Virus record (IMG/VR): IMGVR_UViG_2784746744_000001
Span: 1 to 64,000 of that record
Direction: 5' to 3' (one strand)
DNA length: 64,000 nucleotides
DNA from: a virus
The translations under genes and the position numbers were made by a program. Each line of letters starts with the position of its first letter. Position 1 is the stretch's first letter. The notes beneath the pieces were generated by a model that had not been told where the DNA came from, did not search any database, and saw nothing but the letters and a program-made list of their open reading frames with translations. Positions 3,646 through 63,367 of this stretch are shown here, in pieces.

Positions 3646-3658
3646 ATCCAAATTGGAT
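3646..3658. promoter_or_regulatory. operator-like palindrome ATCCAAATTGGAT (type A), downstream of repressor 1
   Basis: 11-bp odd palindrome TCCAA-A-TTGGA. Same element is repeated in the divergent promoter region at 4419-4475. Confidence 0.5.
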
Positions 3659-3662
3659 CAAT

Positions 3663-4388
3663 TTAGTATTTTCCTGATAGAACGATTGGATGGACGCTTA
3701 CGACGTCCTCGCGAGCGAATCGTATTTCGCCTTCTGGATTATATTGACGCAGGACCAAGTCGGAACCCGCCCAGCCCACGAACTCCTTCACATAACCGAG
3801 CGGAGGAAGATCCTCTGAGGCTGGCCTTATCTGCACGATGACGTCGTCGCCTCGACGAGATGGCTTGGTGGGATGAACGTACACGGTTTCGCCAGCCTTG
3901 TAGCGAGGCCACATCGACTCGCCGTCAATGTAGACTGCGTAGGCGTTCGGCACGTTTTGCAGTGAGGGTGGGCAGGCGACATAATCGAGAACGTGGCCAT
4001 TGAAGCTATACTCGCCGCCTTCTCCGCCGACGGCCTCGCCCAATACGGGAAGCATCATTTCCAAGCGATTCGTGGGAATGTGCCCCATAATTCGAGCGTC
4101 AGGAGCGCCCGCGCCTGTGGACGTACCGTTGGTTGGAACCCTGCTAGGCACTGCGAAGAATTTTCCGGCAGCGCTCTCCCCACTCGCTTCCTTCATCAGC
4201 TGTCGCATCTCGTCTTCAGCAATGCCTAGGAGGGCAGCCAGTTCACGCCATTTGCGCGGCGACGATGTGTTTCCGCGGAAGATCTCGGAGATGGCTTGAG
4301 GAGTCATTTCCAGCCTGTCTGCGATCTCCACCTGGCTAATATTTAATTCTTTAGCTCGGGCGACGAGCAGGTCAGACAGCTGGGACAC
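3663..4388 (-). CDS. cI/LexA-like phage repressor (HTH_XRE plus S24 peptidase domain)
   Basis: N-terminal HTH (LNISQVEIADRLEMTPQAISEIFRG). C-terminal LexA-like domain with G-E-S-M Ser and K-A-G-E Lys dyad context. Confidence 0.85.
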   Translation of the reverse strand: MSQLSDLLVARAKELNISQVEIADRLEMTPQAISEIFRGNTSSPRKWRELAALLGIAEDEMRQLMKEASGESAAGKFFAVPSRVPTNGTSTGAGAPDARIMGHIPTNRLEMMLPVLGEAVGGEGGEYSFNGHVLDYVACPPSLQNVPNAYAVYIDGESMWPRYKAGETVYVHPTKPSRRGDDVIVQIRPASEDLPPLGYVKEFVGWAGSDLVLRQYNPEGEIRFAREDVVSVHPIVLSGKY

Positions 4389-4418: not shown

Positions 4419-4475
4419 CCATTTTGGATATAAAAAAGCAAATCAAGCAATTGACTCCAAATCCAAATTGGATAT
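4419..4475. promoter_or_regulatory. divergent promoter/operator region with one full and two half copies of the TCCAAATTGGA palindrome
   Basis: Full site at 4462-4472. Half-sites TTGGATA at 4424-4430 and TCCAAAT at 4455-4461. Sits immediately upstream of the repressor 1 start. Confidence 0.5.
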
Positions 4476-4779
4476 TGATTGCGCTGTCACCAGATGGCGG
4501 GGGCCTGACGGAGACGAAACAACATGGCGGAAAACACACAATCCTGCACAAGAAGAAGAGCGAAGCTCCACGGTACTGACAGAAGTGGCTTAACGCGGGA
4601 GCGTGGGCCACCAAGAAGAAGCCAACCGGGCATCCCGACCCAAGCGGGATAAGACCCTAAGACGCGGCCAAACAAATTTAGGAGGTTCATTTGATACAGG
4701 AAAATAGCGGCAGAAGAATAGTTGAAAAACAGGGGGGTCGGAGAAGAGCCGACCCGCAGGCCAAGCCACCTTAAAAGCA

Positions 4780-4812
4780 AGCCCGCATGACGCGGGCTTT
4801 TCCTTTTTTTGA
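4780..4812 (+). terminator. rho-independent terminator (GC hairpin plus T-run)
   Basis: aagcccgcatgacgcgggctt followed by ttcctttttttg. Also sits just 3-prime of the minus-strand gene 4847-5635. Confidence 0.55.
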
Positions 4813-4846: not shown

Positions 4847-5635
4847 TCACTCCAAGCTCACCAGATAGTAGTAGTCGCTCTCACGCTCTTCGATCGTGTA
4901 GGTGATGCCGACGGTGGCGTTTGCATTCGTTAGAACGGAAGCTGAGCATGTCGTCAGCTTGCCTGATTGGGAAACTGTCGAAATGTTAGTGACGTCTTTG
5001 ACGCCAACCTTCAGAAGATTCAGCGGAATGTCTGGGAAGATTGCCTTGACCTGCGCGACACTCAACGACGAGTCGCACGTAGGTGTCGCAAGCCCCAGAT
5101 ATGGCCTCGTGAAGCCTGCGGATGCAAATATCGAGAAAACGACCGAAGCCACCCACGCCAGCATTGTGTATTGCTTCATGCGGAGCCGGCGATTTCGAAT
5201 GAAGATATACAGCGGAGCGAGAAGTAGAGCTCCGAAGAATGGTGTCGCTTCTTTGCGCCGTCCACTTGCCCGCACGGCTTTCTCGTCAAGCGCCGCCAAC
5301 ACTCCGTTTGCCGCTGCGTATGCGAGGAAGATAGCCGGAGTTGTCACTCCGCCATATGATTGCGTAAGTACCGCCTCGATCGCCCAGCCGATTGCCGGTA
5401 CCGTAGCGAGTGTCCAAATCCAGAAACTGTTGATCTCTGATATCGGCAGAGGCGGTGGCGAGCCATCATCTCGCAAGTCATCGACCTCGGCGAACCTGCG
5501 CCAGGTGCTGCCGAGAGATCCGGTCCACACCAGCGTGTCGCTGTTGATGGCGCCGCTTTTGAATTTCGAGATTAATTCGTCGCGAGAGACCGGGCCGAAA
5601 CGCCCGCCATTGTCGCTGTAATGCCAGTCAGTCAT
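4847..5635 (-). CDS. membrane protein with N-terminal GYF_2/DUF4339-like domain
   Basis: 262 aa. N-terminal WHYSDNGGRFGPVSRDEL...DTLVW motif, then multiple TM helices and a C-terminal extracytoplasmic domain. Confidence 0.6.
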   Translation of the reverse strand: MTDWHYSDNGGRFGPVSRDELISKFKSGAINSDTLVWTGSLGSTWRRFAEVDDLRDDGSPPPLPISEINSFWIWTLATVPAIGWAIEAVLTQSYGGVTTPAIFLAYAAANGVLAALDEKAVRASGRRKEATPFFGALLLAPLYIFIRNRRLRMKQYTMLAWVASVVFSIFASAGFTRPYLGLATPTCDSSLSVAQVKAIFPDIPLNLLKVGVKDVTNISTVSQSGKLTTCSASVLTNANATVGITYTIEERESDYYYLVSLE

Positions 5636-5878
5636 CGATGCCCCTCAGATCCCATGAGGAGAATAGCACGATGGATGAGTTCTGGAAGTTGCATGGGCGA
5701 AACGCTGACAAGAAAGAATGCTTACAGACAGCAAGTCGACCCTAAGGCCGACACCACTCGCTTAGCGACTTGCGTCTGAAGTTCGTACTAGACCGAGGAG
5801 GAGACCTGCTTCGTGGGCGTGGCTTTACTCAAGGTCGTTCCATATCGACACCACATCGACAAAAGGCTTGGAACATAT

Positions 5879-5894
5879 TTTGGCAAATTTGTCA
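5879..5894. promoter_or_regulatory. operator-like palindrome TTGGCAAATTTGTCAA (type B) 3-prime of repressor 2
   Basis: Near-perfect 16-bp inverted repeat around ACAAATTTGT. Confidence 0.45.
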
Positions 5895-5903
5895 ACAATC
5901 GGA

Positions 5904-6509
5904 TCACACGCGCTCGGCGAGCACGATGACATGCACCGCGGTAAGATCGCTGACAGTGACTGGATCGCCGGCATAGCGGCTAAGGCGCGCCGTTTCGCCA
6001 AGCTCTTCGAGGCGGCCAATCCATGCCAGTCCACCACGGCTGTGAGCAATCACGTCGTTGCCAGGCTTCGGCCAGACGGTAGGGTCAAGCCACACCTTGC
6101 AGCCGACCTTGAAGACCGGCTCCATCAGCTTAGTGTCAACGATCACTGCGTAGCGGCCATCGGGAACCGCCTTGCGCGTCGAATCAAATTTGAACTTGCC
6201 GTCCTTTCGGTCGGAAACACGACCGTAGGTGCTTGCTTTCGCAAAGGCGGTGAGGGGAGCGATCTTCCCGTCAACCGCGGCATGGCGTGCCTCCTCCACG
6301 AACTCGGCAAGTTTTTCCTCGGAGATGTTGAGGAAGGAAGCCAGCTTTGGGCGGGGAAGGCGAGGCAGGCTGTAGCGCTTCCACGTGCTGAAAGTCTGCT
6401 GCTGCTCGCCCAGTTCGCCGGCCGTTTCTCGGTCGGTCAGATTGCGCTCTCTTTGCTTATCGATAAGCATCTGCGCGAAGCGGGATTTCTTCTCAGGCAT
6501 TCGGTTCAC
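5904..6509 (-). CDS. second HTH_XRE/S24-like repressor (LexA-like C-terminal domain without an obvious catalytic Ser)
   Basis: 201 aa. N-terminal HTH. C-terminal beta-rich LexA/UmuD-like fold motifs (VIVDTKLMEP...GNDVIAH...WIGRL). Confidence 0.75.
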   Translation of the reverse strand: MNRMPEKKSRFAQMLIDKQRERNLTDRETAGELGEQQQTFSTWKRYSLPRLPRPKLASFLNISEEKLAEFVEEARHAAVDGKIAPLTAFAKASTYGRVSDRKDGKFKFDSTRKAVPDGRYAVIVDTKLMEPVFKVGCKVWLDPTVWPKPGNDVIAHSRGGLAWIGRLEELGETARLSRYAGDPVTVSDLTAVHVIVLAERV

Positions 6510-6510
6510 C

Positions 6511-6526
6511 TTGACAAATTTGTAAA
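6511..6526. promoter_or_regulatory. conserved 16-mer TTGACAAATTTGTAAA (type B operator, overlapping promoter elements) in the repressor 2 / Cro-like switch region
   Basis: Identical 16-mer recurs at 18782-18797 and 62635-62650. Contains the perfect 10-bp palindrome ACAAATTTGT. A minus-strand TATAAT lies at 6530-6535. Confidence 0.55.
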
Positions 6527-6608
6527 ATAATTATAGGGTGCAAACGTAAATTTCAAGTATCCGCAAGCCGACCAAGCTTCGGTGCTTCTTCATCACAAGA
6601 GGAGAGAC

Positions 6609-6917
6609 ATGACAAAAATCACCAGCGATCAGCTGGCGAAAATGCACGACCGTCGCCTGAGAGGCGAAAGCTGTGTCGATATCGCCAGATCCTTCGGTCT
6701 TAACGAGATGACCGTCTACCAGCGTCTTCGCCGCGAGTTCGGCCTTGATGTCTACAAATTCCCTCCGCCTGTTGCTGCCAACGACAACGTGCCAGGCCGA
6801 GTTCGTAAAATGACTGCACACAACGGCGGATGCTCGACACTGAGCGGCAAGATGCCGGTCACTCTGGTTCGTATCCCGACCCTTGACGGTCCGGCGCCGA
6901 CGCAGGTGGCAGCATGA
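6609..6917 (+). CDS. Cro/CII-like HTH regulator (sigma70 region-4-like HTH). Contains AANDN
   Basis: Start MTKIT preceded by AAGAGGAGAGAC. HTH motif CVDIARSFGLNEMTVYQRLR. Confidence 0.55.
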   Translation: MTKITSDQLAKMHDRRLRGESCVDIARSFGLNEMTVYQRLRREFGLDVYKFPPPVAANDNVPGRVRKMTAHNGGCSTLSGKMPVTLVRIPTLDGPAPTQVAA

Positions 6918-9082: not shown

Positions 9083-9276
9083 TGGGATCGCCGTTTAGCT
9101 GGATGCCCACCATCATGATTGTCGGCATCTTCGTGCTGTCGATCTGGCTTTTCGGAGGCTGAAATGGCGGCACTCGCAATCATCGGAGGAGGCGTCATCG
9201 CCTTCTTCCTGGCCTTGGGCGTGGCCACCTACTTCGCCCCGAAATCTACCACCACCACAAAGAGGAGACAGAAATA

Positions 9277-10128
9277 ATGGGTCGCATTTTTGCAGGCATC
9301 CTTGGCTTTTTCGTATTCATCGCCGCGTCGAGCGTTGTGTTCGGCAGCTGGTACACGATCGACGAGGGCGAACGCGGTGTCCTAACCCGCAACGGCGCAG
9401 TCGTAGGAACGGCCACACCTGGCCTCGGATTCAAGATGCCGATCATGGACGGTGTCGAGAAGATCACTGTGCGAACGGAGATCATCCAATTCGACAAGCT
9501 CGGCGCCTACAGCCGTGACCAGCAGTCGGCCGAGATGCGGGTGTCGGTGAACTACCGAATCCTGCCGGACGCCGTGAAGGACGTTTACTCGAACTACGGC
9601 TCTGCTGACGGTATCGCTGCCCGCCTTATCCAGCCGCGCATCTTCGAAACCCTGAAGACAGTATTTGGCCAATTCACCGCTGTGTCTGCCATTCAGGAGC
9701 GCGAGAAACTGAACACAATGGTGCGTGACGCCATCGCCAAGTCCGTCGGCGGCCCGATTGTCATCGAAGGTGTCCAGATCGAAAACATCGATTTCTCCGA
9801 TGCCTACGAGGCCAGCATCGAGCAGCGCATGCTTGCCGAGGTCGAGGTGCAGAAGCTCCGCCAGAACGCCGAGCGCGAGAAAGTGCAGGGCGAAATCACG
9901 GTGACGCAGGCCAACGCAAAGGCCGACGCTGTTCGAGCTGCTGCATCAGCTGAGGCTGAAGCCATCCGGATCCGAGGTGAAGCTGAAGCATCCGCCATCA
10001 AGTCTCGCGGCGCGGCCCTCCGTGACAATCCCGGCCTTGTCGACCTGACGGCAGTCGAAAAGTGGAAGGGCGACCTGCCATCCACGATGGTACCGGGCTC
10101 CGCTCTGCCGTTCGTCGGCATCAAGTAA
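9277..10128 (+). CDS. SPFH/band-7 (stomatin/prohibitin/HflK-C-like) membrane protein
   Basis: 283 aa. N-terminal TM helix, SPFH core, C-terminal coiled coil rich in A/E/R. Confidence 0.8.
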   Translation: MGRIFAGILGFFVFIAASSVVFGSWYTIDEGERGVLTRNGAVVGTATPGLGFKMPIMDGVEKITVRTEIIQFDKLGAYSRDQQSAEMRVSVNYRILPDAVKDVYSNYGSADGIAARLIQPRIFETLKTVFGQFTAVSAIQEREKLNTMVRDAIAKSVGGPIVIEGVQIENIDFSDAYEASIEQRMLAEVEVQKLRQNAEREKVQGEITVTQANAKADAVRAAASAEAEAIRIRGEAEASAIKSRGAALRDNPGLVDLTAVEKWKGDLPSTMVPGSALPFVGIK

Positions 10129-10185
10129 CCACCACTGCGGCTGGCCACCACCAGCCGCAACCATTCCCACCACAGAGGAGAAACC

Positions 10186-10959
10186 ATGGCTATTTCCCTT
10201 GGTAGCTTGAACAGCACCAGAAACAATAAGCCTCCGATCGGCGTCATCTATGGCGTCCACGGCGTCGGCAAGACCGCATTGGCGGCCGAGTTTCCCGATC
10301 CGTACTACCTCCCCACCATGGGCGAGGAGCCGCCGGACGACATCGATATGCCGTCGCCGGGCACCGCTGAGAGCCTTGAAGACATCCTCGATGTCATTGG
10401 CTGGCTTCTCACCGAGGAGCACGACCGAAAGACCTTCATCCTCGACAGCGTTGATGGCGCCGAGAGCCTGGTCTGGAAAGCGACTTGCGCGCGCCTTGGC
10501 CTCAACAGCATCGAGGATGCGGGTTTCGGTAAGGGTTATGTCGAGGCGGACACCGAGTGGCGCGAGCTTCTCGCCGGTCTGCAGGCGCTGCGAGACGCAG
10601 GCATCGCCGTCGTGCTCATTGCTCACACTGAGATCACGCGGTTCGACAGCCCGACCAGCGATCCGTTCTCGCGCTACGGCATCAAACTCCACAAGCGCGC
10701 TTCGGCGCTCGTGCAGGAATGCGCCCAGTTCGTCGGCTTCATCAACTACCGCCATACGCTGAAAGAGAAGGAGGTCGGCTTCAACAAGAAGGTCTCGCAC
10801 GCCGAAGGCAGTGGCGAGCGTCAGATCCACCTCGAGGAGCGTCCCGGCTTTCTCGCCAAGTCGCGGTACGGCACGCCGGCAGCCATCACTTTCAAGAAGG
10901 GCAAGGGCTGGGAGGAGCTGGCCAAATACATGCCTGAGCCGCTCGGGAAGGCCGCCTGA
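10186..10959 (+). CDS. Sak4-like AAA_24 RecA-fold ATPase (phage ssDNA annealing/recombination)
   Basis: Walker A GVHGVGKT. Typical Sak4 length of 257 aa. Followed by DUF669. Confidence 0.75.
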   Translation: MAISLGSLNSTRNNKPPIGVIYGVHGVGKTALAAEFPDPYYLPTMGEEPPDDIDMPSPGTAESLEDILDVIGWLLTEEHDRKTFILDSVDGAESLVWKATCARLGLNSIEDAGFGKGYVEADTEWRELLAGLQALRDAGIAVVLIAHTEITRFDSPTSDPFSRYGIKLHKRASALVQECAQFVGFINYRHTLKEKEVGFNKKVSHAEGSGERQIHLEERPGFLAKSRYGTPAAITFKKGKGWEELAKYMPEPLGKAA

Positions 10960-14373: not shown

Positions 14374-14931
14374 ATGACCCCGGCGAACGATAACCGCCCT
14401 ACACCAAAAAGGCCGGCCGGCTTCGACGCCGCGCTCGAATCCTACCTGCCTTCGCTCCGGAAGCAGGCAAACTATATGGCCGGCACACGTGAGGACGGCG
14501 AAGTCCTCCTGCATGAGACCGTCCTGCGGATGCTCCGCTGCGCCGATAACTGCCGCGTGGAGACGTTCAAAACCTGGGCGCAGTACAAGCTGCTCAACAC
14601 CCACAGTGGCATGAGGGCGGCAGCCCGCAGCCAGTGCCGGTTCGCGCCGACGACGTCACTTACTCCTGCCAACGATAACGACCCGGACGAATTCGCTCGC
14701 ACGATCTCCCAGATGCGGACGGCTGCGACGCAGGAAGCGGATGCTGACTTTGCGGATGCGCTCCGGGTTCTCGGCACCATCAAGGACGGTGACTTGCTTC
14801 TCCGTCGCGCGATGGGTTTTGAGCTCAAGGTCATCGGCGACGAGCTCGGCGTGAGCAAGGAGCGCGTCCGCCAGCGTGAAGAGGCCGCAAGAACGGCGTT
14901 CTGCGCAGCGATGCAGCGGAGTGTCGCCTGA
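14374..14931 (+). CDS. ECF-type sigma-70 family sigma factor (regions 2 and 4). Two ANDN motifs
   Basis: Region 2-like LLHETVLRMLR. Region 4 HTH LKVIGDELGVSKERVRQ. Confidence 0.65.
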   Translation: MTPANDNRPTPKRPAGFDAALESYLPSLRKQANYMAGTREDGEVLLHETVLRMLRCADNCRVETFKTWAQYKLLNTHSGMRAAARSQCRFAPTTSLTPANDNDPDEFARTISQMRTAATQEADADFADALRVLGTIKDGDLLLRRAMGFELKVIGDELGVSKERVRQREEAARTAFCAAMQRSVA

Positions 14932-16735: not shown

Positions 16736-17401
16736 CTAACTCTTCGTTTTTATCCCTTTCTCAAGCTTGTGCTCCAGGCCTCGCATGATCGATGTGCTCA
16801 TGGCTGAAAAAGCTCCCACGGGAGAAAGCTCACGCTTTTTCAGATTCCGGTAAATCGCTTTGCGCGTAGCCATGGGTATCGTCTTGTCGGCTAGTTGTTG
16901 GAAAATGAGTAGTATTTTTTCAGCGTGCTCTGTCCTCATCTCTATTAAATCCGGTCTGTTAAGACCGATAATTTCGATCGTGGACAAGCCTGGAATGGAG
17001 CCGCAATGCCCCGCGACAGGCCCAGCAAAGACAATGTGGTCATCGGGGTCGGTGATGTAGGGATCAATTATTTGGGCGGCGGTAGGATCATCGTTCGATT
17101 TGTTTTGATTACATAATTCGCACGCCAGCGTCAGGTTGTCCCATTTGAAAGTCTTCTTAGGATCTAGTGACTTCGGATAGATATGCTCGACATCACCATG
17201 ATGCACATGTTTGAGTTTAGCTTCGCAATAGGCGCACTTGCCATTTGTCTCAAGGGTTAGGACGCGCTTTATGTCGACGTGTCGATATTTGCTCTTGAGA
17301 CCATCGTTTGCGTTCTTACCTGCAGCAAGGAGATCTGCCAGCCAGGCAGCGCCATTCGTTACAAGCACAGTTGGCTCGGTTAACTTAGAGAGCTTTATCA
17401 T
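16736..17401 (-). CDS. HNH endonuclease, PtuB-like (Septu-like defence partner)
   Basis: CAYCE...HHGDVEHIYP...N...CELCN HNH motif. 4-nt overlap with the upstream ATPase. AT-richer than the surrounding genes. Confidence 0.7.
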   Translation of the reverse strand: MIKLSKLTEPTVLVTNGAAWLADLLAAGKNANDGLKSKYRHVDIKRVLTLETNGKCAYCEAKLKHVHHGDVEHIYPKSLDPKKTFKWDNLTLACELCNQNKSNDDPTAAQIIDPYITDPDDHIVFAGPVAGHCGSIPGLSTIEIIGLNRPDLIEMRTEHAEKILLIFQQLADKTIPMATRKAIYRNLKKRELSPVGAFSAMSTSIMRGLEHKLEKGIKTKS

Positions 17402-18648
17402 CTGTTTGCAGCCATTCTCGCGAGCGTTTCTGCGAAGTAATCATCCAGCCCAAGCTGTGTCAGTTGCGAGCGCATTTGCTCAATATTGCCCTCAGTCAAG
17501 TTGTTGATATCGAACGCCTTTGATACCTTATAGAGCTCCTCTTCTGCCCAGATCGGCATCGTTACCGGCACTCCAAGTACCTCGCGCAAGACGTCGCCTG
17601 CAGAACCAGACTTCGAATCTTTGGTCAACGCTACGGAATAAACCGATCCGCCTGAGGGTAAAATGTTGTTCGCGCTCTTATATCTCAAGGCGTATATCGA
17701 CGAATCGCGAACAGACGAAACGACAAAAGGACTGTGGGTGGCGACGATGAATTGCCCACTTGGAAACGCTTGCAGCAGATTTCCCATAAGTGTGCGTTGC
17801 ATAGAAGGGTGTAGGTGATTTTCTGGCTCGTCGATTAAGCAAACAAAATTCGTTCTTTTCCGTGAATATAAGAAAACCTGCCAGGCCAAGTCCAATATGG
17901 AGTGAAGTCCGCCCGATGCACCGTCTATAGGGAAGTCACCTGTGTCAGTAACAATGACTACATCAGGAACTCTAATGCTAAGTGTCCTGAAACCTAGGCT
18001 CTGAGGAAGAAGCTTGCCCAGAACATCCTTGAACGCTTCGTAGTCGGCCTCGATCTGAACGTTACGAGGAATGTTGGGGTTTCCTACCCCAAATGTCGCC
18101 ATTGATATCAGCGCCTCTTTCATCCGAAAGGCCGGCGAGGAGGCCGTGTAACTATTCGCGATCTTGTGCTTTATCTCCTCATCGTAGAGCGTGTACGCCT
18201 GCTCTGCAGACATAGGATTGCTCCTTATGACATCCACGGCTTGGTATGTTGGGATAAACCTGTGAGACGCGATGTACAGGCCGTCCAGAACTTGCGACCC
18301 TCGAGTATGATGCAAGTTATATGCCCCAGAGTCAGTGCCCAGAGCGTGTAATCCTGATTTTGTGCCGTCTGAGAACGTCACCATCCCAATGCGGTTTTGC
18401 TCGTCCATAGCGCGCTGGCCTTGCCTTTTGTCGCGATCGTTCGCGACGTATCGCACGGTACCATCGTCGTCGATGTGCGGCGTCGCCACCAGCAATTGAT
18501 TGAAGCCAAACATCATGCCCAAGGTCTTCAGGATGGTGCTTTTACCCGAACCATTTGCGCCGGCGATTACGGTGAGGCGAGGATGGAAATCAATGTTGAT
18601 GGAGGCGTATTGCCGCCAATTCTCAATCTCAAGGTTATTAAAAATCAC
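17398..18648 (-). CDS. ABC/OLD-type AAA_15/21 ATPase, PtuA-like (Septu-like defence)
   Basis: N-terminal Walker A GANGSGKST. Walker B FVCLIDEPENHLHP. 416 aa. Operon with the HNH gene. Confidence 0.7.
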   Translation of the reverse strand: MIFNNLEIENWRQYASINIDFHPRLTVIAGANGSGKSTILKTLGMMFGFNQLLVATPHIDDDGTVRYVANDRDKRQGQRAMDEQNRIGMVTFSDGTKSGLHALGTDSGAYNLHHTRGSQVLDGLYIASHRFIPTYQAVDVIRSNPMSAEQAYTLYDEEIKHKIANSYTASSPAFRMKEALISMATFGVGNPNIPRNVQIEADYEAFKDVLGKLLPQSLGFRTLSIRVPDVVIVTDTGDFPIDGASGGLHSILDLAWQVFLYSRKRTNFVCLIDEPENHLHPSMQRTLMGNLLQAFPSGQFIVATHSPFVVSSVRDSSIYALRYKSANNILPSGGSVYSVALTKDSKSGSAGDVLREVLGVPVTMPIWAEEELYKVSKAFDINNLTEGNIEQMRSQLTQLGLDDYFAETLARMAANR

Positions 18649-18781: not shown

Positions 18782-18797
18782 TTGACAAATTTGTAAA
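18782..18797. promoter_or_regulatory. copy of the 16-mer TTGACAAATTTGTAAA (type B operator/promoter) upstream of the HNH-AP2 gene
   Basis: Exact repeat of 6511-6526. Confidence 0.5.
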
Positions 18798-18859
18798 AAT
18801 AAGCATGATGCAATAACCATGCGCCGACCAAGCGCGACACCACGCCACAAGAGGAGACG

Positions 18860-19411
18860 ATGATGAAGGATGCCCATAGCCTTCAGTACCTGAAAGAATG
18901 CTTGAGATACAATCCAGAGACAGGCGCGCTCCACTGGCGAGAAGATCGTCCCAAACATCACTTCGACTTATCAAGAACACGCAATCGGTGGATTGGGCGT
19001 TTTGGTGGAAAGCAGATCACCTGCGTCGCGGAAAGCGGCTACATCGTGTTCAACTTGCGTGGCGTTGTCTACCTCGCTCATCGCGTAATCTTTGCGATGG
19101 AGAACAACATCGAGATGGCAGAACTGCCTGAGCAGATCGACCACAAAGACACGGTTCGCACCAACAACCGCCGAAGCAATTTGCGAGCGGCAGACGTTGT
19201 TAAAAACGCGCATAACATGTCCGTTCGTCGTGATAGCGCCTCCGGATACAAGGGCGTCACATGGGGCAAGCAGCGTCAAAAATGGCGAGCCACGATCCAG
19301 ATCGATGGAAAACAGAAGCATCTCGGATTCTATGAGGATCCGGCAGAAGCTCATGCCGCCTACATCAAGGCAGCAAATGAGAATTTCGGTCAGTTCGCGA
19401 GGGCAGCATGA
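18860..19411 (+). CDS. HNH homing endonuclease with AP2 DNA-binding domain
   Basis: HNH_3 motif YLAHRV...IDHKD...N. AP2 domain SGYKGVTWGKQRQKWRATIQ...FYEDPAEAHAAY. Confidence 0.7.
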   Translation: MMKDAHSLQYLKECLRYNPETGALHWREDRPKHHFDLSRTRNRWIGRFGGKQITCVAESGYIVFNLRGVVYLAHRVIFAMENNIEMAELPEQIDHKDTVRTNNRRSNLRAADVVKNAHNMSVRRDSASGYKGVTWGKQRQKWRATIQIDGKQKHLGFYEDPAEAHAAYIKAANENFGQFARAA

Positions 19412-31550: not shown

Positions 31551-31627
31551 CGCAGAGTAGAGCAGCCAGGTAGCTTGTCAGGTTCATACCCTGAAGGTCG
31601 CGGGTTCAAATCCCGCCTCTGCAACCA
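31551..31627 (+). tRNA. tRNA-Met (CAT), initiator-like (C1-A72 mismatch)
   Basis: Cloverleaf folded by hand. Anticodon loop TTCATAC. T-arm GCGGGTTCAAATCCCGC. 3-prime CCA. High similarity to bacterial tRNA-fMet. Confidence 0.75.
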
Positions 31628-31635
31628 ACTCCCAT

Positions 31636-31711
31636 GCGCGTCTGGCCGAGTGGTTCAGGCAACGGTCTCCAAAACCGTCTAGGTCGGTTCGATTCCGGCG
31701 GCGCTGCGCCA
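31636..31711 (+). tRNA. tRNA-like sequence, possibly tRNA-Trp (CCA anticodon), with imperfect acceptor stem (possible pseudo-tRNA or att remnant)
   Basis: D-arm GCCGAGTGGTTCAGGC. Anticodon arm ACGGT-CTCCAAA-ACCGT. T-arm GTCGGTTCGATTCCGGC. Acceptor pairing only 5 of 7 and no clean CCA register. Confidence 0.35.
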
Positions 31712-41145: not shown

Positions 41146-41402
41146 TGCCACGCATTGCACGGCTGGGTGACAGCGGGACGCATGGCGGCTCGATCATCAG
41201 CGCTGCGTCTAAATGGAAATGTGAAGGCGCGCTGATTGCTCGCAGAGGCGACCTCTACGCCTGCCCAATCCACGGAACAAACCCGATCGTCGGCGGCTCG
41301 TCGAAATGGAAATGCGAAGACGCCGAGATCGCCCGACACGGTGACGCGACGGCGTGCGGCGCATCGATCATTTCTGGCGCCTCCAAGTGGGAGTGCGACT
41401 GA
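41145..41402 (+). CDS. PAAR-repeat spike-tip protein
   Basis: Three PAAR-like repeats (ARLGD...HGGS, ARRGD...CPIHG, ARHGD...CGAS). Confidence 0.7.
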   Translation: MPRIARLGDSGTHGGSIISAASKWKCEGALIARRGDLYACPIHGTNPIVGGSSKWKCEDAEIARHGDATACGASIISGASKWECD

Positions 41403-48448: not shown

Positions 48449-48976
48449 ATGAACGTTATCGGCTACACCGAAAGCGGTTCAATCCGCGCCATCTTTGATG
48501 GGGACGCAAGTGAGAGCACTGTCCCCGACTACATGGGCAACCGACATCGCCAGATGATCGCGGAGTGGGAAGCGGAGGGGAACACCATCCCGCCATACGC
48601 ACCGCCCGCAATCGATCTCAATGCCTATACGGCAACCAAGCGCTGGGAGCGTGAGGTCGGCGGCATTGTCGTCGGTGGCCTGGATGTCGCTACCGACGAC
48701 CGGTCGAAAATCATGATCTCCGGCGCGCGCATGAAGGCGGACAAAGACACTGCCTTTACCGCGCAGTGGAAATGCCCAGACGGCAGTTTCATCACGCTTG
48801 ATGCCGCGACCATCATCCATGCCAGCGACGCGGTTCTTGACCACGTCAATGACTGCTTCTCTATCGAGGCCGATGTGCTGGCCGCAATCGGTGACGGCTC
48901 GATCTCGACCACGGCAGACGTGGATGCGGCCTTCGCCGCGCAGCTTTCGCCCGAAAGTTTCCAGACCCGCGGTTAA
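48449..48976 (+). CDS. tail fibre assembly chaperone
   Basis: 175 aa immediately downstream of the fibre gene. Confidence 0.5.
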   Translation: MNVIGYTESGSIRAIFDGDASESTVPDYMGNRHRQMIAEWEAEGNTIPPYAPPAIDLNAYTATKRWEREVGGIVVGGLDVATDDRSKIMISGARMKADKDTAFTAQWKCPDGSFITLDAATIIHASDAVLDHVNDCFSIEADVLAAIGDGSISTTADVDAAFAAQLSPESFQTRG

Positions 48977-62237: not shown

Positions 62238-62609
62238 TTAAACGCACAAAGCCCCGCGCATGTCGGTACGCGGGGCAATGGCGCGGCCAGCTGACGCATC
62301 GTCAAGATCAACCGGCGCGATTTCAAAACCGTGATCACCGAAATACGTTCCGAGATTATTTAACTTTTGCTTCAGGCGATTCACCGTCTCTAAGATTTGC
62401 CTGAGTTCCTCGTCTGTGCCCATGCCGAGTGCCAAATTTTCTGCGACCTCGACAACAGCTGCCAGGGTTTCGGCCTCTGTCCAGCCGGCTTTCATCGCGT
62501 CGGCAATAAGCTCCTGCAACTGCCCTTCGATCGCCTCCTCACATTCGATGAAGCGGTCGGAAGAATTCGCGCGGGGTTTATCCATGCCGCCCAACGAACT
62601 CAACCGCAA
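62238..62609 (-). CDS. hypothetical acidic protein
   Basis: 123-aa ORF. Divergent from the protease gene across the operator. Confidence 0.4.
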   Translation of the reverse strand: MRLSSLGGMDKPRANSSDRFIECEEAIEGQLQELIADAMKAGWTEAETLAAVVEVAENLALGMGTDEELRQILETVNRLKQKLNNLGTYFGDHGFEIAPVDLDDASAGRAIAPRTDMRGALCV

Positions 62610-62634: not shown

Positions 62635-62650
62635 TTGACAAATTTGTAAA
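62635..62650. promoter_or_regulatory. third copy of TTGACAAATTTGTAAA (type B operator/promoter)
   Basis: Exact 16-mer repeat. Confidence 0.5.
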
Positions 62651-62710: not shown

Positions 62711-63367
62711 ATGACCAGATTCAGACGCATTGCGTTCGCATCCGTCGCTGTATTACTCAGCGGTATCGCCTACTTTGCCGCCCCTACAGTAGCGGCCTAC
62801 ACCGAAAAGTTCACTGCCGCGCCGGTTACAGCCGCCGCGACGGTCAAAGTCGTCACAAAGACCGGCCACGGTTCGGGTGTGCACATCGGCACAGGATTTG
62901 TTCTGACTGCTGCGCACGTCGCCCGCGACGTGAAGTCGGTGCAATTGGTGACGAAGGACGGTCAGTCACGCCAAGCCGACGTCCTGTGGATCAACGATGA
63001 ATACGACATTGCGCTGCTGCGCACGTCGCCCGCGACGTTGCCTGCCGCTCACCTGGACTGCGGTCGTATGGATGTCGGGGCGGTCATCGAGGCCATGGGC
63101 AATCCTCTGGTCGTCGATTTTGTCTCGGCCTACGGCAAGATTGCCGGCGACCCTCGGAAGCAGGGTCCTTGGAAGTCGGTCTACGTCACAGACATCACGA
63201 CCGTGAAGGGTATGAGCGGTGGCCCGGTATTCTCGTCATCTGGCGATGTCGTCGGCATCACCGTCGGTCTGCTGTCTGACGCTACAGGGCTGATCCCGAT
63301 CGGCGTGCGATTTGGCTTCGTCGTGCCGTCGTCCGATGTTTGCGCGCTGTTGGGGCGGGTGTCTTGA
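62711..63367 (+). CDS. trypsin-like S1 serine protease, secreted
   Basis: His motif LTAAHV. Ser motif GMSGGPV. Signal peptide. Leader CACACAGAGGAGG. Confidence 0.7.
   Translation: MTRFRRIAFASVAVLLSGIAYFAAPTVAAYTEKFTAAPVTAAATVKVVTKTGHGSGVHIGTGFVLTAAHVARDVKSVQLVTKDGQSRQADVLWINDEYDIALLRTSPATLPAAHLDCGRMDVGAVIEAMGNPLVVDFVSAYGKIAGDPRKQGPWKSVYVTDITTVKGMSGGPVFSSSGDVVGITVGLLSDATGLIPIGVRFGFVVPSSDVCALLGRVS

Follow-up and report, generated by a model that had tools for sequence, protein, structure and literature searches.

Within the window, by which we mean the whole stretch of 64,000 nucleotides (nt) analyzed here (positions 1-64,000 of IMG/VR record IMGVR_UViG_2784746744_000001), a 16-base-pair (bp) near-palindrome, TTGACAAATTTGTAAA, occurs exactly at three places on the plus strand (6511-6526, 18782-18797, and 62635-62650). 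We suggest, with a probability of roughly 0.7, that this 16-mer serves a second repressor, encoded at 5904-6500, as its operator-promoter, in a prophage related to Rhizobium phage 16-3. The module would combine a host sigma-70-type promoter (TTGACA, a 17-bp spacer, and a weak TAnnnT) with a palindromic operator of 16 bp, TTGACAAA followed by TTTGTmAA, whose core ACAAATTTGT is included and which covers the -35 hexamer and the first ten spacer bases. A dimer of the 5904-6500 protein would bind the operator and exclude RNA polymerase. Binding of this protein to the 16-mer, repression by it, and its expression in the lysogen are predictions from sequence.

An initial annotation of this DNA had pointed to the identical 16-mers at 6511, 18782, and 62635, and our scan agrees: eight strand-matches with up to three mismatches were found against 0.21 expected, and none of 100 shuffles reached eight. 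The same annotation placed copies on both flanks of the repressor gene. One of these (6511-6526) is exact, and the other is a diverged copy, TTGGCAAATTTGTCAA, which differs from TTGACAAATTTGTAAA at two positions and lies at 5880-5895 rather than 5879-5894. Beyond these four places, no copy at up to three mismatches was found in the whole window. Alignment of the surroundings showed that identity among the copies ends with the 16-mer (17 nt in two copies) and that the flanks are unrelated. The copies are therefore not a duplicated segment, and recent duplication or a mobile repeat was rejected as their origin. A single base separates TTGACAAATTTGTAAA from the perfect palindrome TTGACAAA-TTTGTCAA, and the ten central bases of the 16-mer, ACAAATTTGT, form a perfect one (ACAA-AT-TTGT). 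Of the host-factor boxes considered (CtrA, alpha-LexA, integration host factor, and the RirA iron-responsive operator), none fits the sequence. The GraR box of S. aureus shares the motif string, a coincidence with no phage context.

The upstream copy (O-5', 6511-6526, plus strand) lies under divergent, overlapping promoters, in the bidirectional switch layout that had been proposed for it. Read directly in the sequence, its TTGACA (6511-6516) is the -35 element of a rightward promoter with TAGGGT at 6534-6539, and a perfect minus-strand TATAAT (6535-6530) belongs to the leftward repressor promoter, whose predicted start region is covered by the palindrome. A promoter scan of this region gave TTGAAA-18-AATTAT at 6556-6527 (leftward). 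The downstream copy (O-3', 5880-5895) reads TTGACAAATTTGCCAA on the minus strand and lies just 3' of the repressor stop, directed leftward into the gene of a structured RNA; it may be a leftward promoter/operator for that RNA and hence more than a flank. At 18782-18797 (plus strand), after the helicase gene, the motif offers TTGACA-16-CATGAT and heads a unit composed of an HNH-AP2 gene (18860-19411), an uncharacterized gene, an N6/N4 methylase, and a C5 methylase. At 62635-62650 (plus strand) it heads a trypsin-like protease operon (62711-63367 onward), and the palindrome there also offers TTTACA-17-GATACT, a leftward promoter toward 62238-62609. Counted from the motif's first T, the distance to the start codon is similar at 6511, 18782, and 62635 (98, 78, and 76 nt, respectively). 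The promoter scan calls the site at 18782 (score 10/12) but not those at 6511 (-10 TAGGGT) or 62635 (-10 TAGTGG). Leaders 3' of several operator-promoters share the hairpin GCGCC-GACCAA-GCGC (CCGACCAAGC), as at 6567-6583 and 18822-18840 in the window and at ~21545 in phage 16-3.

Members of the second repressor's family (31-86% identity) were found at 78 loci, in Agrobacterium rosae, A. pusense, Pseudohoeflea suaedae, and 75 IMG/VR contigs. At every one of them (78/78), the core ACAAATTTGT with at most one mismatch lies no more than 200 bp upstream of the repressor gene, so that a palindromic site at the repressor's own promoter is conserved together with the protein, the arrangement of an autoregulated phage repressor. 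The core, again with at most one mismatch, also lies within 150 bp past the repressor stop at 66 of the 78 loci, and more degenerate copies are visible at several others. Two further, distant homologues (29-34% identity) adjoin exact 16-mers. When IMG/VR was scanned for the exact 16-mer, 71 of 120 matches were in AT-rich contigs (median GC 0.37) without a repressor homologue and are mostly noise, while 30 of the 49 high-GC stretches were on contigs with a detected repressor homologue. Several other high-GC stretches are possibly fragments of the same source genomes, judged by their names.

Dispersed copies are likewise a property of the whole phage group. At up to one mismatch, the core occurs four times in the window, nine times in phage 16-3, and seven times in phage RHph_TM3_3_14B (hereafter TM3_3_14B), compared to ~0.6 times in shuffled genomes, and 16-3-like phages carry 4-9 module copies per genome at orthologous positions. 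None of the nine core sites of 16-3 is annotated in its genome record, which labels p070, the homologue of the second repressor, only as a "helix-turn-helix domain-containing protein." These sites comprise an exact 16-mer before protease p036 (21503); a minus-strand site before the leftward genes p061/p060 (33872); diverged copies flanking p070 on both sides (37041 and 37764); two copies in the gap from helicase p088 to p089 (48949 and 48798); sites before p104 and p106 (57198 and 57756, respectively); and one with a core mismatch and neither promoter orientation (56255). In TM3_3_14B, sites lie before the trypsin-like peptidase EVB67_010 (8484), on both flanks of a "putative S24 family peptidase/transcriptional repressor" gene (23043 and 23736), directly after the helicase (33316), and at 41168 and 41462. 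By position, the window site at 62635 is the orthologue of the pre-protease sites (16-3 21503, TM3_3_14B 8484), and that at 18782 is the orthologue of the post-helicase sites (16-3 48798/48949, TM3_3_14B 33316); around the latter window site, the HNH-AP2 homing-type endonuclease gene and a Septu cassette are insertions. The initial annotation had taken the 16-mer for a special link between the repressor and two accessory genes; this view has to be given up, as both distal sites head conserved multi-gene units, family-wide. The distal sites, 12 across the three genomes, all fall between genes and point in the direction of the gene that follows. In 16-3, the stretch 48798-48964 holds two tandem operator-promoters ahead of an operon with the exonuclease p091.

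Three observations tell the operator apart from the promoter. In a set of 73 non-redundant sites oriented by TTGACA, the spacer has A/A/A at positions 14-16 (0.63/0.85/0.77). The AA at positions 15-16 (85% and 77%) mirrors the TT at positions 1-2, completing the palindrome, and a TAnnnT signal at positions 24-29 corresponds to a 17-bp spacer after a perfect TTGACA. The upstream site occurs in either orientation with its core unchanged, its TTGACA directed toward the gene in the cro position (window type) or toward the repressor gene (16-3 type). The 3' site of the Agrobacterium prophages is TACACAAATTTGTGTA or CCTACAAATTTGTGTA, and TTGACA is there displaced upstream of the palindrome.

The putative binding protein, a member of the 16-3 p070 family, is encoded on the minus strand. 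We revised the start of the coding sequence initially given as 5904-6509, and the resulting product (5904-6500, ATG start, 198 amino acids) equals an NCBI protein exactly; the gene downstream of O-5' starts at 6609, not 6610. No Pfam family was found at E ≤ 0.01 for 5904-6509, the gathering threshold of Peptidase_S24 (PF00717) was not reached, and the precomputed Pfam field was empty for all 21 homologues. Because the Pfam search found nothing, homology was established by profile-profile and fold searches. In PHROGs, the protein matched phrog_4 ("transcriptional repressor," 1.2e-11). A profile of 25 family members aligned by hhalign with the C-type repressor of the window (3663-4388) over its full length (98.65% probability, E 5e-16), and the N-terminal profile matched PDB entries 2kpj (2.1e-6) and 434 repressor (0.04), which are indicative of an XRE/434-type helix-turn-helix (HTH). 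An AlphaFold2 model (predicted local distance difference test, pLDDT, 81.5) places helices at residues 7-18, 23-30, and 34-40. Its best Foldseek matches were lambda cI, LexA, UmuD, and 186 CI, with 3e-6 for entry 3bdn, and TM(target) values of 0.53-0.68 to LexA, UmuD, and the lambda C-terminal domain indicate the S24 beta-fold.

The HTH/S24-like repressor of the initial annotation thus holds good as to HTH and fold (hhalign, Foldseek), but not as a self-cleaving cI, given that no Pfam S24 domain is found and that Ser and Lys are lost. In the family alignments, the catalytic Ser of C (DGESM) faces L/V (DTK[LV]M) and its catalytic Lys (YVKEF) faces G (WIGRL), and both replacements hold throughout. 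An unsystematic look at the linker (~75-110, pLDDT 56-69) revealed no obvious Ala-Gly or Cys-Gly. The protein is therefore an HTH plus S24-fold paralogue of C that has no Ser/Lys dyad. It should dimerize and, because the dyad is lost, is probably not cleavable under RecA. The family is small: at E ≤ 1e-30, 17 clusters were found in a set of 1.84 billion representatives. Its profile also matches long proteins (300-1000 amino acids; P0037, P0038, P0040, and others) with 4-10 tandem HTH copies.

Two observations connect the DNA-binding domain with the motif. The recognition helix, (Q/K)Q(T/A)(F/Y)(S/N)xW(K/L), is near-invariant across 45 HTH variants, as is the core. Moreover, at two IMG/VR loci that we call L200 and L201 (2844154294_000001 and 2597490149_000001; ~9680-10500), an N-terminal HTH that matches 16-3 p070 without a difference for at least 54 residues is fused to a different C-terminal half, and the neighbors are an AlpA-like gene and a primase-like open reading frame (ORF) of 778 amino acids. 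There, tblastn detected no cro-like or C homologue, and TTTACAAATTTGTCAA is retained 20 nt upstream of the HTH gene. Because this domain swap keeps the operator with the p070-type HTH, the motif follows the DNA-binding domain. The element at these loci is possibly satellite-like, which may represent the borrowing of a helper's repressor specificity by a satellite or unrelated phage.

Several points weigh against an operator of the second repressor. The 78 loci include many near-duplicates, and dereplication leaves ~45 HTH variants and 73 distinct site contexts. Since neither helix nor core varies, the evidence that links them is co-conservation and not covariation. Only three loci, largely redundant, separate the operator from the cro-like gene, and because that gene co-occurs at 75 of the 78 loci, these sites could also be bound by its p072-type product. 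At position 14, the palindrome consistently has A and not C, an asymmetry that may point to a directional constraint over and above that of a symmetric dimer. The -10 elements (TAGGGT, CATGAT, TAGTGG) are weak, so activation, and not repression, might be what these promoters require, and the phage encodes a sigma-70 region-4 protein (14374-14931).

The 16-mer could, accordingly, be a promoter element for RNA polymerase with a phage sigma-like or activator protein (e.g., that of 14374-14931), with the palindrome being incidental. We consider this quite unlikely. The strict directionality of the distal sites (12/12), the A that breaks the symmetry, and weak -10 hexamers in a phage with sigma-like proteins of its own would all suit such an element, but TTGACA-17-TAnnnT is the geometry of host sigma-70, and the module heads the early operon in which the sigma-like protein is itself encoded. 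Nor would a promoter element account for the conservation of positions 15-16 as a mirror of positions 1-2, for 3' sites that have the palindrome but carry TTGACA outside it, or for the module's presence in the satellite-like element, whose 14-kb stretch holds none of the 16-3-type early genes tested.

The gene divergent from the repressor raises a different alternative. It is the first early-right gene (6609-6917, plus strand, 102 amino acids; 16-3 p072 family), and its "Cro-like" designation goes by its position together with a sub-threshold HTH_23 match (2.8e-4). Its product might bind the module, alone or in competition with the repressor, as in a two-protein lambda-like switch. This is possible, if doubtful. 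A p072-type homologue is divergent from and adjacent to the repressor gene at 75 of the 78 loci, the protein has a weak HTH_23/HTH_28 signal, and lambdoid cI and Cro share operators. Set against this, the HTH match falls below the Pfam cut-off, and a single intergenic operator leaves lambda-style differential occupancy without a substrate. Loci L200-L202, furthermore, keep the operator and the p070-type HTH and have an AlpA-like gene in place of any detectable p072 homologue.

The window also encodes a separate C-type repressor (3663-4388, minus strand; HTH_3 and Peptidase_S24, Pfam 1.9e-8 and 9.1e-8), a homologue of the 16-3 c gene, in which the catalytic Ser and Lys are present (DGESM and VKEF motifs). 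The second palindrome reported beside it, TCCAAATTGGA, was recovered exactly at 3647-3657 and 4462-4472, one on each side of the gene, and both copies extend to ATCCAAATTGGAT. The left copy (3646-3658) is in the OL position, at the place of OL1/OL2 of 16-3. The right copy (4461-4473) lies within the spacer of a TTGACT promoter in the PR position, at the place of OR; the 16-3 record NC_011103 annotates OL1/OL2 and OR1/OR2 flanking the c gene. Because the ATCCAAATTGGAT copies occupy the OL and OR positions, what was initially called a separate cI-like repressor is the immC system of 16-3-like phages, with a differing operator specificity. These C operators vary among relatives (ATCCAAATTGGAT in the window, ACAA-N4/N6-TTGT in 16-3, and CCTATA-type in TM3_3_14B), while the 16-mer motif is constant.

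Binding of the 16-mer by the C-type repressor, or by a host factor, is very improbable. The half-sites ACAA/TTGT of the 16-mer core (ACAA-N2-TTGT) are identical to those of the annotated 16-3 C operators, and Papp et al. are said to have reported in 2002 that the 16-3 C repressor tolerates two half-site spacings, but the core is unchanged in phages with unrelated C operators, including the window (ATCCAAATTGGAT) and TM3_3_14B. Several motif loci show no C homologue within the stretch fetched. A host factor would leave unexplained why the motif keeps a fixed place to either side of a single phage gene in hosts that include Neorhizobium, Agrobacterium, Sinorhizobium, and Pseudohoeflea.

If the second repressor does have its operator-promoter in the 16-mer, as we favor, one bound dimer at 6511 would block both the repressor's own promoter (negative autoregulation) and the divergent early-right promoter. 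Bound repressor would also block the promoters of the structured RNA (5880), the post-helicase operon (18782), and the protease-led operon (62635). Such sigma-70 promoters would be out of reach of the C repressor, which would act only at its own flanking operators. Relief of a non-cleavable repressor on induction could, at a guess, come from an antirepressor or from interference by the C-controlled PR unit. The proposal that the element has two immunity-type regulators survives insofar as there are two repressors with different operators. It does not extend to the second as a determinant of immunity specificity: because the module is identical in relatives with different C operators, it does not appear to be such a determinant in the usual sense and, if expressed in the lysogen, would act on any superinfecting relative.

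The PR-proximal unit itself (4473-4809, plus strand) comprises only ~330 nt, with a purine-rich stretch, a 42-codon Arg-rich ORF (4524-4652; p069 of 16-3 is likewise Arg-rich), and a strong terminator (4779-4809). Convergent intrinsic terminators at 4735-4809 (4779-4799 plus a T-tract on the plus strand, 4755-4735 plus a T-tract on the minus strand) part it from the leftward unit of the structured RNA and a GYF_2-domain gene. The PR-proximal unit could encode an N-like antiterminator, an antirepressor, or an RNA, which bears on how the second repressor would be relieved.

Like lambda and 434 cI-Cro at OR, the window has an HTH plus S24-fold repressor divergent from the early-right operon, an operator that overlaps both divergent promoters, and probable negative autoregulation. 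Unlike them, it has one intergenic operator instead of three cooperative ones, a repressor without the Ser/Lys dyad, further operators at other promoters, at distances of 12 and 56 kb, and, 1.5 kb leftward, a separate C repressor that is catalytically intact and has operators of its own. The immC system of 16-3 belongs to the same phage family and corresponds to 3663-4388 with its flanking palindromes, the second repressor is a C paralogue, and the half-sites ACAA/TTGT resemble those of the 16-3 C operators. The 16-mer nevertheless belongs to the neighboring gene p070, has a half-site spacing of N2 and not N4/N6, sits at p070 and at distal promoters instead of OL/OR, and is invariant across relatives whose C operators diverge.

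For dispersed operators with an RNA beside the repressor gene, the closest functional analogy is C1 of phage P1, whose operators, asymmetric 17-mers, are dispersed over the genome, and whose immI region provides the c4 antisense RNA. Both systems would pair one repressor and many dispersed promoter/operator sites with a small RNA. The window operators differ in being palindromic, their repressor comes on top of a classical C repressor, and a relationship in sequence would not be expected. The asymmetric stoperators of L5/Bxb1 gp71-type repressors block elongation inside transcription units. They recall the window in that a non-cleavable repressor would act on many short, orientation-biased sites in intergenic gaps genome-wide, while the window sites carry a -35 of consensus sequence and, at 17 bp from it, a -10, and so resemble initiation sites. 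Non-cleavable cI-like repressors relieved by antirepressors are found in the Gifsy phages, in 186 (Tum), and in P22 (Ant/Mnt immI), whose immC/immI pair the layout with two repressors also recalls. Here too, a non-cleavable repressor would stand alongside an SOS-responsive element, with two regulatory regions in one temperate phage, but the SOS-responsive partner in the window would, by pure inference, be the phage C repressor and not host LexA. A literature search returned no account of the motif, of p070 function, or of the structured RNA, the key papers on 16-3 immX and the C repressor being outside its reach.

The structured RNA, ~150 nt in length (5707-5862, minus strand; 113 bits), lies directly past the 3' operator on the repressor strand, in a block that all relatives conserve. 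Relatives occur in 16-3 (L004, 4277-4424, minus strand; ~107 bits) and TM3_3_14B (L002, 4193-4344, minus strand; 124 bits). The RNA begins with a hairpin at its 5' end, whose loop is UGUGGUG. An unpaired GUCUCCUC, which is invariant, comes next, and then a long 3' stem that carries two small hairpins at its tip, with the loops GUGGUG and UUCG/GAAA; the tail behind this stem is rich in U. From 35 sequences, RNAalifold predicted 17 pairs, 14 of them with compensatory changes, and the transcribed strand was identified by its G-U pairs. A covariance model, R1, built from a hand-curated structure of 35 pairs, matches once per p070 locus at a constant position (one locus has a tandem second copy) and finds no RNA in L200 or L201.

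In the alignment fitted to this model, 85.8% of cells pair; when partners are slid as a control, 35-56% do. The covariation score of 0.504, compared to at most 0.144 in the controls, was reached by none of 500 shuffles; the alignment leans toward the model's own structure, and the sequences are related. No Rfam match was found for the RNA, even at E ≤ 10 in 5600-5950, and the only Rfam matches in the whole window were two tRNAs. Folded as a single sequence, the window RNA is unremarkable (z = -0.2), and apart from hairpin 1 its fold departs from the consensus, so the case for the RNA is one of covariation. We regard it as a probable new structured RNA family with strong covariation support. 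It may have an operator-promoter of its own, form the 3' end of the repressor mRNA, or arise in both ways.

An unusual initiation-region signature recurs at many phage genes and consists of one or more CACCAC/CCACCA repeats, GAGGAGAC, ~4 nt, and ATG (e.g., at 9262, 12054, 14362, 18851, 22373, 62699, and 63619); CACCAC occurs 47 times on the plus strand and 15 times on the minus strand. A restriction of CACCAC...GAGGAGAC to promoter-proximal leaders was considered and rejected, as it is a general initiation signature (17 of 27 strong sites). The GUCUCCUC tract and the GUGGUG loops of the RNA are complementary to this signature, CACCAC...GAGGAGAC-N4-ATG. Predicted duplexes with 19 translation-initiation regions were weakly better for leaders with CACCAC/GAGGAGAC (z -0.9 to -2.5). 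The position of the RNA and its conserved anti-Shine-Dalgarno tract suggest a regulatory role. In alpha-rhizobia, AbcR1/2 and NfeR1/ar14 are trans-acting small RNAs with anti-Shine-Dalgarno motifs. The new RNA similarly exposes the C/U-rich GUCUCCUC, complementary to the phage ribosome-binding consensus GAGGAGAC, and differs from them in its long branched 3' stem and in matching nothing in Rfam. Between the RNA and the leftward terminator lies the gene of a GYF_2-domain protein (4847-5635, minus strand; 8.6e-13), which is probably a membrane protein judging by eye from its hydrophobic stretches. Only one of the 78 related loci, the 86%-identical L128, has a homologue, and we take the gene for a probable moron that shares a transcript with the RNA.

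For rhizobia, the classical model of a temperate phage is 16-3, whose control of lysogeny has been described through immC, immX, and avirT. We put forward, as a rather unlikely extension of the above, that classical genetics overlooked a second layer of silencing, one common to the whole family of 16-3-like phages. In it, the non-cleavable cI paralogue with its dispersed operator-promoters, and the RNA pairing through its exposed GUCUCCUC and GUGGUG with CACCAC...GAGGAGAC, would jointly silence lytic transcription and translation. Because the module is identical in phages heteroimmune at immC, cross-silencing between such relatives would be predicted, and disarming by a C-controlled function would be needed. 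On the operator-promoter model that we favor, and without this extension, lysogeny would require two repressors with divided labor: an SOS-sensitive C at PL/PR, and a non-cleavable paralogue silencing other sigma-70 promoters, including those of replication/modification genes and of the protease operon. The avirT locus of 16-3 is reportedly needed with avirC for virulence, and the classical avirC plus avirT virulent mutants are said to show increased recombination. It is pure conjecture that avirT is an operator-constitutive mutation at a module site, e.g., in the tandem 16-3 pair at 48.8-48.9 kb. If correct, the operator-promoter model would offer a concrete molecular explanation to consider for long-standing genetic observations, give Rhizobiales genetics a compact operator/repressor pair as a tool, supply a 16-mer that marks transcription-unit starts when prophages of this group are annotated, and add one structured RNA family.

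The DNA of the region is ~70-72% identical to Rhizobium phage 16-3, RHph_TM3_3_14B, RHph_X2_25, NV1.1.1, and AP-16-3, and because the 5904-6500 protein is 100% identical to the NCBI "S24 family peptidase" of Neorhizobium sp. JUb45, encoded on a 1.35-Mb contig, the window is a 16-3-like prophage of this strain. An integrase gene (1-1113) is followed by the leftward genes, and the early-right operon, beginning at 6609 on the plus strand, carries DnaN-like, sigma-like, and helicase genes. On the opposite strand, inserted between the helicase gene and the conserved post-helicase promoter, lies a Septu defense pair (16736-18648, minus strand) of adjoining genes for a PtuA ATPase (17398-18648; PADLOC 2.6e-151, Pfam AAA_15/AAA_21) and a PtuB HNH nuclease (16736-17401; PADLOC 1e-68, Pfam HNH). 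Methylases and a primase-polymerase follow, and then a Nu1/GpA-type terminase, 3' of which ORFs without annotation in this analysis sit where structural genes would be; the trypsin-like protease operon forms the right end. Two tRNA genes (31551-31624 and 31638-31704, plus strand; Rfam 61.4 and 38.3 bits) lie just 5' of the terminase genes.

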